Source: Alphaproteobacteria bacterium (lineage in GTDB: Bacteria > Pseudomonadota > Alphaproteobacteria > UBA828). From it: a stretch of DNA of 64,000 bases. Of the stretch, positions 61,397-64,000 are shown in pieces. How positions within the stretch are numbered: position 1 is the stretch's first letter; each line of letters begins with the position of its first letter. A model generated the notes under the pieces. That model saw only the letters and a program-made list of their open reading frames with translations, ran no database searches and was not told where the DNA came from. Location: contig CBDCRW010000005.1 in NCBI GenBank assembly GCA_965221125.1, positions 416,001 to 480,000 on the forward strand, written 5' to 3'. A program made the position numbers and the translations under genes.

Positions 61397-61630
61397 ATGA
61401 TTAAGGAAACTGTGGTCGCCGTGAGTATCGTCACCATGGCGGCCGGCGCCGCACTTGCGCCGTCGGCCGTATCCGCCGACGATCAGCCGATCGTCGTCGC
61501 CGATTCTCACGATGATCCGTGCAACCCGTGCGCGGCCTGCAACCCGTGTGCCGCGGATGAAGAAGATCCGTGCAACCCCTGCGCCGCCTGCAATCCCTGC
61601 GGCGCCTGCAACCCCTGCGCTGCCGAGTAA
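61397..61630 (+). CDS. Small exported Cys-rich peptide with five CNPC repeats
   Basis: Strong [13 protein letters not shown]-terminal signal-like segment; core [38 protein letters not shown] (10 Cys); repeat units differ mainly at third codon positions. Confidence 0.85.
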
Positions 61631-61656
61631 GCTCGGAAGTAGCTGCGACCTTACCC

Positions 61657-61689
61657 GAGGGCGCCGCCTCAGGAGAGGCGGCGTTCTTG
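61657..61689 (+). terminator. Probable intrinsic terminator after the CNPC peptide gene
   Basis: Stem gcgccgcctc / gaggcggcgt with a 4-nt loop, followed by tctt; lies between convergent genes. Confidence 0.55.
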
Positions 61690-61738
61690 CATCGGGAATC
61701 GGTGCTGTACGGGCCGGCCGGGCGTCGGCGGGCGTCCC

Positions 61739-62515
61739 TCACTCGGCGGCCTTGGCCTCCCGCGCATCGAGGGCAGCCCTGACCGCCGCCATCTGACCCT
61801 CGATGTCGACCTCGGCCTGCGAGACCACCTCCAGACCGCGATCCTCCAGCGTATCCTTGCCCCCGTTCCGAGGGGTCCAGCTCTCGATCACCTGATCCCG
61901 CGCCTTGAGCAGCAGGATGATCTGCGGCCAGAACAGCCGCACCATGGCGCCGACCCAGCGGTTGGTCGGCCAGGAGGGGCGCGCGTGGTCGATGCCGAAG
62001 AGGCCGATCACCTTGGCGACGTCGTCGGCGCGATACCAGGTCTCGCCGGTGACCCAGCGGTTGGTGGTGAACAGCCTGAGCGGCTGACCCTTCGAGCCCA
62101 TCGAGATGGCGATGATGTGGGTGAGCGCGTCGTCGCCCTTAGGCCACTTGTCGCGGCTCTTGCGGCGCGCGGGCTTCATCCCACGCGGCAGCCCCTTGGC
62201 GCGCACGAAGGTATGAAAGTGCCCGTGCTCCGAATCCCTGAAGCCGCCGGGATGGGCGTGATAGAAGTACTGGGAGCTGCTCTGGCCGTCGAAGACGTCG
62301 CCCTTCGGGTAGTGATCCCACTCGTAGAAGGTCTCGTGCCCGCGCAGCAACTCGCTCACCACGTTGTCGCCGGTCCGGCCGAGCACCCGCTCGACCTCAA
62401 GCACCTCCTCGCCGGCGGCGAGCATCATGCGCAGCCGCTTCGCCGGCTGCGTCGCCATGTCGAGGTGGCGGGTCTCCTCCTGCCGCTCGTTCTTCTTCGC
62501 CGTGGCCTGGGCCAT
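61739..62515 (-). CDS. His-rich protein of unknown function (resembles DUF6969 from memory)
   Basis: Start MAQATAKK at 62515; motifs YEWDHYP, QYFYHAH, EHGHFHTF, LTHIIAISM, RLFTTNRWVTGETW; no signal peptide. Confidence 0.75.
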   Translation of the reverse strand: MAQATAKKNERQEETRHLDMATQPAKRLRMMLAAGEEVLEVERVLGRTGDNVVSELLRGHETFYEWDHYPKGDVFDGQSSSQYFYHAHPGGFRDSEHGHFHTFVRAKGLPRGMKPARRKSRDKWPKGDDALTHIIAISMGSKGQPLRLFTTNRWVTGETWYRADDVAKVIGLFGIDHARPSWPTNRWVGAMVRLFWPQIILLLKARDQVIESWTPRNGGKDTLEDRGLEVVSQAEVDIEGQMAAVRAALDAREAKAAE

Positions 62516-62616
62516 GCTGCCGCCCTTACGCTCGTTCGCCGGCCATGCCGCTGGTGAAGGATAGTGCCGCGGCCCGGCTCTTGCCAGACCGCCAGCCGTT
62601 CGCGCTCCTCCGCCGG

Positions 62617-63492
62617 CTACTCCCCTTCGCCCGGATCGACGACGAGGCGGAAGCCCACGAGGATGTGCTTGATGTCTGCCGGCCGGCCGTGGCGCGCGGC
62701 AGGGCGGCAAACGCCGCAGCCGCTGTCGTCCCACGAGCCGCCCTTGACGAGGAAGCGCCCCGGATTGCCCGGCGAGGCGGTCCACTCGAAGACCTGGCCC
62801 GCCGCGTCGAGCATGCCGTAAGGGCTCGCGCCGGCGGGGAAACTGCCTACCGGCAGCGTATCGAAGGGCCCGGCGTCGTGGCTGTTGAGCAGCGCCGCGT
62901 CGTACGTGTCGCCCCAGGGGAAGATGAGGCCGTCCGACCCCCGCGCGGCCTTCTCCCATTCGAGCGCGGTGGGGAGCCGCCAGGCGCGCCCGGTCTCGGC
63001 CGAGAGCCAGGCGGCAAAGGCATTGGCGTCGTCGTGGGAGACCATCACCACCGGATGGTCGTCGCGCCCGGCGGGCGGCTTTCCATCCACCCACGCGTGG
63101 CGGCGGGTGCGCTCGTAGGGGTGGATCAGCCGGTAGCCGCGCCAGGTCTCGGGGTCGACGTCGGGCACGCGATGGCCGGTGGCGTTCACGAACGCCTGGT
63201 ACTGGGCGTTGGTGATCAGCGAGCGCGTGATGAAGAAGCGCTCCAGCGACTTCGGCCCGCGCGGGCGCTCGCGGTCGTACCAGCCGCGCTCGCGCGTGAC
63301 GGAGTGGCCGTAGGCGGCCTCGTCGAGCCGGTAGCCGTACTCCCGCTCGGCCGCGTCGGAGCCCGCGATGAAGGGGCCGGCGGGAACCTCGACCACATCC
63401 GGTGGTGCTACGCTGCCGGCGTGAGCCGCGCCCGCGAGGGCCGCGCCGGAAAGCGCGAAACAGAGTGCGAGCAAGGCGCGGGCGAGGATCAT
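62617..63492 (-). CDS. Exported formylglycine-generating-enzyme (SUMF1/EgtB/PvdO) fold protein
   Basis: Signal peptide ending [73 protein letters not shown]. Confidence 0.9.
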
Positions 63493-63616
63493 CCCTGGAA
63501 TCTATTCACGAGCCGCCCGGCGGGGGAATCACAAAAATTTGAGCGGAAGGCATTTGCCCGGCACCATGCGCTCGCCGACAATTCGCAACGAAAACGGTCA
63601 TCAAGGGAGGCCCGAC

Positions 63617-64000
63617 ATGCCACGCTCGAAACCCCTGCTTGCCGGAACGGTGGTCCCCGTGGTCATCGGGCTCGCGGTCGCCACCGGCGGCCACGCCACG
63701 GCCGACTCATCGTCCGGCGAGAGCCCGGCCGCGACCCCGCAGCAACAGGATCCGGGCGTGTTGCTCTTCGCCTCGTGCAACCCGTGCGGGCCGTGCAATC
63801 CCTGCGACCTGTGTGCGGCGGCATGCGGGCCTTGCAGTCCATGCAACCCCTGTGCCGGCGCATGCGGCGCCTGTGGACCGTGCAACCCCTGCAATCCCTG
63901 TGCTGCCGGATGCGGTCCCTGCGGGCCGTGCAACCCGTGCGCGGCCGGTGCTGCGGCCGCCTCCGACTGCGTCGTTCCGCGCCTCGCCGCAGCGTGCAAT
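63617..64000 (+). CDS. Exported protein with long CxP (CNP/CGP/CSP) Cys repeats, 5' part only; missing from the ORF track
   Basis: RBS AAGGGAGG then ATG at 63617; reads [29 protein letters not shown]...[76 protein letters not shown]; open to the window end. Confidence 0.85.

Follow-up and report, generated by a model that had tools for sequence, protein, structure and literature searches.

At the 3′ end of a 64,000-nucleotide stretch of DNA from a sponge-associated alphaproteobacterium (contig CBDCRW010000005.1, positions 416,001 to 480,000 of the forward strand; hereafter, the window), four adjacent genes encode a small exported peptide with CNPC repeats (pep77), a protein of the family DUF6969, an exported protein with the FGE-sulfatase fold (FGE-like protein), and an exported protein in which a tail of N-P-C repeats is joined to a cytochrome P460 domain (NPC::P460). 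An earlier note, made from the letters of the window, had described four adjacent genes here, and all four are present. We found that this cluster is one version of a wider module that is centered on DUF6969 and has as its hallmark partner an exported Cys-repeat protein that stands alone or is joined to a heme domain. The module is a member of no described system; on our best reading, it works like a Sox-type carrier system that has been built from unrelated parts. More specifically, comparative analysis of the loci suggests a periplasmic poly-thiol system for carrying and oxidizing sulfur, an assignment to which we give slightly less than an even chance. The cluster had been put forward as undescribed, and a literature search on the DUF6969 name, on the repeat motifs, and on cytochrome P460 combined with cysteine-rich proteins agreed with this, returning nothing on the module in the main text of openly accessible papers.

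We compared DUF6969 loci within the genus and beyond it. DUF6969 was present in 20 of 20 congeners, and the genes for DUF6969, the FGE-like protein, NPC::P460, and cytochrome c occurred together in 19 of the 20 genus loci; the 20th ends at a contig edge. In 19 of 20 congener loci, a second open reading frame (ORF) with NPC repeats lay no more than 5 kb from DUF6969, and none was found in L120. The 4.58-Mb genome contains just three ORFs with at least three NPC units, and because two of the three stand on either side of its only DUF6969 gene, the pattern is not a product of chance. Outside the genus, we assembled two sets of loci. Set A comprised 20 DUF6969 loci, 13 of which were all the matches in a 400-genome sample of the phylum (13/400), while the other seven came from non-genus relatives. 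Set B was drawn from 577 relatives, of which the best 80 were used. Most of these belong to Rhodospirillales-like Alphaproteobacteria and some to the Beta- or Gammaproteobacteria; three duplicate loci of Set A and one duplicates a genus locus. An exported Cys-repeat ORF accompanied DUF6969 in 14 of the 20 loci in Set A, where we also found the FGE-like gene (4/20), P460 (3/20), and an adjacent cytochrome c (6/20). The repeat ORF usually adjoined DUF6969. In many cases it lay upstream in the same orientation, and the two genes were often separated by ~10 bp or overlapped; in L025, repeat ORFs lay 1.7 and 5.2 kb away. In Set B, 39 of 80 loci contained a Cys-repeat ORF and 36 the FGE-like gene, with 25 containing both; cytochrome c was present in 26 and P460 in 17, and all 17 carried NPC repeats. 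Co-localization across genomes, which the earlier note had named as a check on its proposal, is thus real. DUF6969 as a family comprises 968 clusters at 50% identity (E up to 1e-3; 1.84 billion representatives searched), and the cultivable genera that carry it include Thalassospira, Terasakiella, Aestuariispira, Oceanibacterium, and Hwanghaeella.

The repeat that is common to all lineages consists of N-P-C plus small residues, and its units frequently contain a single Cys (NPCAAK). CNPC, which had been taken as the conserved unit, turned out to be a variant that is frequent at loci with the FGE-like gene. Set A also contained Cys-repeat types that lack NPC altogether, namely KKPCAA in L012 and lipoprotein-like peptides of the CCAAEG type in L013 and L014.

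The sulfur reading draws on the surroundings of DUF6969. We clustered all ORFs within 4 kb of the gene in 101 loci and counted sulfur-related genes in 121 loci. The recurrent neighbors were the FGE-like gene (41 of 101 loci), DUF2336 (39), cytochrome c (31), and NPC::P460 (28), along with parts of TRAP transporters, Usp, and apt. Outside the Rhodospirillales-like synteny, YeeE/PmpAB sulfur transporters (PF04143) occurred in 10 of the 121 loci and rhodaneses in 20. Fifteen of the 20 rhodaneses were single-domain, exported proteins encoded beside a DUF6969 or NPC gene in alphaproteobacterial loci. A DsbD_TM/CcdA protein together with a thioredoxin was found in three loci, and DUF302 in six. In L009, L075, L099, and L101, NPC repeats flank a mono-heme domain of the SoxA/TsdA cytochrome c type (PF21342; 32 to 40 bits versus a cut-off of 27), and by tblastn a SoxA/TsdA-type domain is present in 6 of 121 loci. 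Two loci illustrate how these genes are combined. L088, from a gammaproteobacterial metagenome-assembled genome, carries on one strand NPC::P460, an NPC peptide, the FGE-like gene, DUF6969, an unassigned gene (c47), DUF302, and YeeE. The order in L016 is PmpA-like, PmpB-like, NPC peptide, DUF6969, a two-domain rhodanese, and a BigR-like ArsR repressor. The c47 protein is exported, 160 to 196 aa long, and marked by the motif TQxACQF[IL]E; it matched no Pfam or NCBIfam family and occurred in 6 of 121 loci (e.g., L088:3569-4051, L084:6680-7270, and L033:974-1516), usually with a DUF302 protein and YeeE after it.

Two described systems come close to this arrangement. The module is like Sox in that its putative carrier is exported and bears reactive Cys on a flexible stretch, that it has a c-type heme partner, and that cytochrome c is the likely electron acceptor. 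The six relatives that fuse NPC tails to a SoxA/TsdA-type heme domain, to which the window locus does not belong, add to this likeness. So does the linkage of YeeE-family importers to the module in relatives, which parallels that of SoxT to Sox, as described in a report that also presents SoxYZ as a persulfidated carrier and gives background on PmpAB (PMC11582611). However, there was no SoxY (GGCGG), SoxZ, SoxB, SoxXA, or SoxCD among the ORFs of the locus. The carrier of the module has tens of N-P-C units rather than the one GGCGG arm of SoxY, the heme domain in the window is of the P460 type, and neither DUF6969 nor the FGE-like protein has a Sox counterpart. The second comparison is with operons of the BigR/PigS type, which detoxify sulfide or sulfite. 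In L016 and L017, PmpA-like and PmpB-like halves, a rhodanese, and a BigR-like repressor surround the NPC peptide and DUF6969. Here, DUF6969 takes the place of Blh, which has a metallo-β-lactamase fold and was not seen, and none of the genes of these operons is found in the window locus.

The window holds the 5′ part of the NPC::P460 gene (63617..64000, plus strand), which encodes a signal peptide and the start of a ~150-aa Cys-repeat tail. The gene starts at 63617 rather than 63618 and ends at a position equivalent to 64714 (L004:2618-3715, 365 aa). Twenty Cys fall within the first 128 aa, as had been noted for this divergent exported gene, and the full protein contains 43 Cys, 19 NPC, and 28 C-x-P-C. 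Residues 232 to 354 match PF16694 (30 bits versus a cut-off of 27), and a heme motif, CAECH, lies near the C terminus. The domain thus resembles cytochrome P460/c′-β in its above-threshold match and its C-terminal CxxCH. It is nevertheless very divergent: its best relatives in the PDB, 7ead and 7s5o, give only weak alignments (E 0.004 to 0.013), too weak to place the Lys cross-link to the heme by which P460 differs from c′-β, and its Cys-repeat tail is absent from solved members. Just past the window comes a class I cytochrome c gene (PF00034), the fifth member of the conserved cluster. The locus had been expected to continue beyond the window; it does so only with the heme domain of the fourth gene and this cytochrome c, after which come housekeeping genes. 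We examined the next 15 kb (L004), which contain apt, F420-type oxidoreductases, a glutamine-synthetase-like gene, and moaA, and found no further maturation enzyme, protease, or exporter in them.

The DUF6969 protein (61739..62515, minus strand; 258 aa) matches PF22308 at 2.6e-81 (272.5 bits versus a cut-off of 27), covering model positions 2 to 201 of 201. It has no Cys and contains 10 His, five of them inside residues 86 to 101. Its N terminus is not hydrophobic, and since no signal peptide is seen, it is probably cytoplasmic, as judged from the sequence; a signal peptide was likewise found in 0 of 21 aligned members. This corrects the periplasmic location that the earlier note implied for its His-rich protein. 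The conserved His cluster consists of H68, H86, H88, E96, H97, H99, H101, and H133. In alignments of 21 and 118 members, P70, H86, G98, H99, and H101 were invariant, and H68, D76, H88, E96, H133, N152, R206, and D207 were invariant or nearly so. The AlphaFold2 model (pLDDT 94, pTM 0.91) places the His residues on a six-stranded sheet against which helices pack. Foldseek returned no solved analogue of this model (best E 0.44, TMq 0.17), phmmer had no match in the PDB at E up to 10, and an ESM Atlas search gave no usable match. A cupin fold, which was guessed from the HxH...E...H pattern, had no support from either the model or Foldseek. A few representatives of the family carry an N-terminal transmembrane (TM) helix or a C-terminal TM helix and SH3 domain, and these fusions gave no functional clue. 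The predicted complex of DUF6969 with pep77 scored 0.02 against a mark of 0.32, which we counted neither way.

The FGE-like protein (62617..63492, minus strand; 291 aa) has a signal peptide and matches PF03781 at 5.9e-43. In the mature chain, C259 and C262 are the sole Cys and lie in an active-site loop, GCGVC, which confirms the exported FGE/SUMF1-fold protein with CxxC that had been predicted. By sequence, its closest PDB relatives are ToxD (1.4e-26), CalU17, OvsA, SUMF2, EgtB, and PvdO, with true FGEs at 1.5e-11. The structural model has a pLDDT of 78.7 and low confidence at residues 257 to 259. In Foldseek, it matched CalU17, ToxD, and FGE structures at TMq 0.56 to 0.66, with the FGE entries 2q17, 6muj, 5nyy, and 6s07 at E ~1e-14 and TMq 0.56 to 0.60. 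The GCGVC loop aligns with a loop of SUMF2 (1y4j) that has no Cys and is the counterpart of the FGE loop that carries C336 and C341 (numbers taken from PDB entry titles). Compared with aerobic FGE (SUMF1 and the enzymes of S. coelicolor and T. curvata), the protein is alike in its PF03781 fold and in having a Cys pair in a loop that aligns with the catalytic loop. Moreover, the partner repeats often read C-x-P-x, as the target motif of FGE does at its beginning. Yet the defining Cys pair of FGE is absent, because the spacing is C-x2-C and not the C-x4-C of human C336/C341, and so, on sequence grounds, this is not a canonical FGE. The repeat motif also lacks Arg, and there was no sulfatase among the ORFs of the downstream 15 kb, the only part of the genome searched for one.

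Conservation of the loop sets apart the FGE-like copies that occur with DUF6969. GCG[VI]C is kept in 39 of 41 DUF6969-adjacent copies, with GCGVY in L024 and an unreadable loop in L054. The nearest sister clade, which was found in eight genomes of one other family in the 400-genome phylum sample, has a single Cys in HGGVC, and the six of its loci that we fetched contained no DUF6969, P460, or NPC ORF within ~6 kb. The FGE-like and DUF6969 genes are often co-directional and 4 bp apart or overlapping, also at loci that lack a nearby repeat ORF. A second FGE-family paralogue in the genome (contig C3:103330-104160; L112) is 37 to 42% identical and lacks the CxxC loop; a thioredoxin-like match lies ~6 kb from it.

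The pep77 gene (61397-61630, plus strand) encodes the 77-aa exported peptide with five CNPC units that had been predicted, and its ORF, ribosome-binding site, and signal peptide were all seen. GGAGGAG sits 12 nt 5′ of the ATG. A conserved signal peptide (MIKETVVAV...SAVSA), assigned by eye as Sec-type, is followed by an acidic linker and the five units; there are 10 Cys in total. Orthologues share 66 to 94% identity. Across the genus, the signal peptide is near-invariant, while the number of CNPC units ranges from 4 to 11. Contigs from metatranscriptomes and metagenomes of relatives contain in-frame length variants of the repeat region (window 61476-61660), with skips of 33 and 98 nt, so that strains differ in their number of repeats. 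A paralogue on contig C4 (C4:999156-999362; L005:7157-7363, minus strand) encodes 68 aa with four NPC units, a GTG start, and the same signal peptide.

We propose that the disordered (C)NPC tails would serve as periplasmic multi-thiol arms that carry sulfane or thiosulfate-derived sulfur, comparable to the Cys arm of SoxY. The tails would be kept reduced, as the CcdA and thioredoxin neighbors lead us to think. SoxXA oxidatively loads SoxY; in a similar way, the fused heme domain, which is P460-type here and SoxA/TsdA-type elsewhere, would load sulfur oxidatively onto the tails, and the electrons would pass to the adjacent cytochrome c. The FGE-like CxxC protein may act on periplasmic C-x-P-C units, as either a Cu/O2-type or a thiol-disulfide enzyme. 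DUF6969, for its part, would be a cytoplasmic metalloenzyme that processes imported sulfur species. Blh-type persulfide dioxygenases have a set position in BigR operons, and in other loci DUF6969 appears to occupy this slot, between the YeeE/PmpAB transporters and rhodanese. If the sulfur-carrier reading is true, it would give DUF6969, the CxxC clade of the FGE superfamily, and the NPC tails their first function. It would also mean that bacteria have a second, Sox-unrelated route for carrying and oxidizing reduced sulfur outside the cytoplasm, via poly-cysteine arms on heme domains. A bolder version, which we regard as doubtful, is that DUF6969 founds a new fold class of His-ligated metalloenzymes and, together with the CxxC variant of FGE, services a new class of exported poly-(C)NPC carriers in which carrier arm and heme catalyst are fused. 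The result would be a self-contained periplasmic system for carrying and oxidizing sulfur that has no sequence relationship to Sox and occurs widely among marine and symbiotic Pseudomonadota.

Several observations weigh against the sulfur-carrier reading. The window locus has no YeeE and no rhodanese, and the YeeE of this genome is on contig C7, unlinked to the module, so that the case for sulfur comes from distant relatives. Even among those, sulfur-linked loci are a minority (10 of 121 with YeeE, 20 with a rhodanese, and 6 with a SoxA-like domain). The repressor of L016 scored 109.6 bits against NF040642, under the cut-off of 155, and SoxA scores in NCBIfam were also under the curated cut-offs. 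P460-family proteins are known for nitrogen-oxide rather than sulfur chemistry. The parts of the module also occur separately. Of the 80 Set B loci, 30 lacked both the Cys-repeat ORF and the FGE-like gene, and 27 had none of the four partner types. The FGE-like clade is found without DUF6969 as well, and the C4 paralogue of pep77 is flanked by a penicillin amidase gene (PF01804) and mreB, with no DUF6969, FGE-like, or heme partner gene near it. Finally, the metal, localization, and activity of DUF6969 are all things that we infer.

The strongest of the alternatives is maturation like that of a ribosomally synthesized and post-translationally modified peptide (RiPP). Under this explanation, which was the idea of the earlier note, DUF6969 would be a new cytoplasmic metalloenzyme that modifies Cys or N-P-C units of signal-peptide precursors prior to Sec export, and an FGE-like oxidase would finish the work in the periplasm. 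The outcome would be a peptide that chelates metal or is redox-active, comparable to the bufferins although made by different enzymes. We consider this unlikely, although it would, if true, reveal a new enzyme class for cysteine modification. Several features have the look of such a pathway. In several classes, small precursor-like genes with Sec signals directly precede DUF6969 in the same orientation (L012-L018, L057, L059, L070, L084, L096, and L101). The signal peptide shows much stronger conservation than the repeats, and two candidate metalloenzymes are present. There is also a precedent in the bufferins, Sec-exported Cys peptides that are modified in the cytoplasm (PMC11626156). Like those and other MNIO RiPPs, the module pairs Sec-signal precursors containing repeated Cys with a candidate cytoplasmic metalloenzyme. 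But many of its supposed precursors are large heme proteins (~230 to more than 500 aa, carrying as many as 61 NPC units), and no copper-stress genes are linked to it. The earlier note had remarked that no MNIO/DUF692 enzyme was visible, and this holds genome-wide: PF05114 had no matches in the genome (92% complete), whereas the control genome, Caulobacter, was matched. Nor did a protease, an exporter, or a RiPP recognition protein recur among the neighbors in the 101 loci, and 41 of 80 Set B loci had no Cys-repeat ORF nearby.

An apparent link between the FGE-like gene and its putative target sequence bears on the same question. C-x-P-C, which corresponds to the first four positions of the FGE motif, made up a larger share of PC units in the 25 FGE-linked loci (median ~0.6) than in 14 others (median ~0.15; Mann-Whitney P = 4e-4). 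However, the loci are interrelated, and when we compared phylogenetically independent pairs on the DUF6969 tree, there were only four supported pairs (median P = 1). We therefore treat the trend as a lead and not as a result. The independent-pairs test of FGE-like presence against repeat-ORF presence was equally underpowered.

Less probable again is that the repeat proteins are an unmodified periplasmic buffer for soft metals, a metallothionein-like sponge for Cu(I), Zn, Cd, Hg, or As to which the FGE-like protein and DUF6969 would be metal-binding helpers. The very dense Cys and CxxC of NPC::P460 (43 Cys in 365 aa, with 28 C-x-P-C) and the His cluster of DUF6969 would suit such a role, and solved FGE structures bind copper (6muj, 6s07, and 5ssz). 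CcdA and thioredoxin pairs, which we found in three loci, are also known from copper-tolerance systems and count in favor of the buffer. Against this, no family for the homeostasis of copper or another metal recurred among the neighbors in the 101 loci, including genes of the CopA, CusF, CueR, or MerR type, while the recurrent neighbors are related to sulfur. Most loci outside the Alphaproteobacteria use the single-Cys unit NPCAAK, without CxxC, and DUF6969 has no signal peptide with which to reach the periplasm. Metal buffering, which the earlier note had put forward beside Cys-peptide maturation, is thus not the best reading. A Cu-chelating RiPP likewise becomes a rival, because DUF6969 looks cytoplasmic, sulfur genes recur and metal genes do not, the shared unit is N-P-C, and there is no further maturation enzyme past the window.

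We also consider it very unlikely that the system detoxifies nitrogen oxides or hydroxylamine, with a catalytic P460-type heme and a thiol tail that traps NO or HNO. The heme domain does fall in the P460/c′-β superfamily (through 7ead and 7s5o) and adjoins a cytochrome c gene, but P460 is dispensable (17 of 80 loci, compared with 39 of 80 that have Cys-repeat ORFs), a SoxA/TsdA domain takes its place in six loci, and no nir, nor, or hao gene recurs among the neighbors. Just as improbable is that there is no functional system at all, only inherited synteny and fast-evolving low-complexity tails: Rhodospirillales-like DUF6969 genes do lie in a stable housekeeping setting (DUF2336, TRAP transporter, apt, and a CysQ-like gene), and on the DUF6969 tree (98 rows) the FGE-like gene switches between present and absent at least 16 times and a repeat ORF at least 17 times, but the pair of DUF6969 and a Cys-repeat protein recurs in other classes amid wholly different surroundings, two of the three NPC ORFs of the genome flank its sole DUF6969 gene, and CxxC is specific to the DUF6969-linked FGE clade.

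Some further features of the window concern the spacers between these genes. Between the convergent pep77 and DUF6969 genes, RNA folding revealed a terminator-like, G+C-rich hairpin of 15 bp (61656..61689, no strand assigned). The whole 108-nt spacer had a fold z-score of just -1.61, the hairpin was not listed by a scan for consensus terminators, in which no candidate exceeded shuffles, and a scan for sigma-70 promoters returned no sites. Upstream of NPC::P460, an alignment of the spacer between the FGE-like and P460 genes from 20 genus loci uncovered a conserved motif of 20 nt, GGRAGTCACAAAAATTTGAG (63524..63543, no strand assigned), which is probably part of the promoter or operator of NPC::P460. 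A second conserved block, TTTGCCCxGCACCATGCGCTCGCCGACAATTCG, also lies upstream of this gene. Both blocks are kept in nearly all of the 20 aligned loci, and they may be a promoter or an operator.

Relatives of the stretch are present in sponge metagenomes. In three metatranscriptome libraries from two studies (contigs X18, X19, and X20), parts of all four genes were covered at 85 to 99% identity, taking in pep77, DUF6969, the FGE-like gene, and the start of the P460 gene (e.g., record 1 of X18 corresponds to 61405-61537 with three differences). Contigs from such RNA libraries are weak evidence that can neither prove transcription nor rank the genes, and uncovered parts carry no meaning. High G+C content gives rise to shadow ORFs that overlap the real genes (62545-63999, plus strand, 485 aa; 61739-63094, minus strand, 451 aa), and the repeat tail is open in several frames, all of which helps to make small peptides and repeat tails prone to misannotation.

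Other neighbors of the module deserve mention. A CysQ-like gene of the inositol-monophosphatase family (PF00459; window 60443-61225, minus strand) abuts pep77, and similar genes lie near DUF6969 in eight loci; if it encodes a PAP phosphatase, it would be a further faint link to sulfur assimilation. DUF2336 (PF10098), which is not in the window, is found directly 3′ of DUF6969 in 39 of 101 loci (e.g., L090:6705-7880 and L023:8199-9377). This adjacency is probably lineage synteny, and DUF2336 itself is uncharacterized. An extracytoplasmic function (ECF) sigma factor is encoded beside DUF6969 and NPC genes in four loci of beta/gamma type (L009:8136-9010, L010:1031-1842, L070:8875-9504, and L101:6456-7201), and in L009 and L010 it is accompanied by an anti-sigma sequence of the ZAS type (HxxxCxxC). 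The sigma and anti-sigma factors may regulate the module in those lineages.

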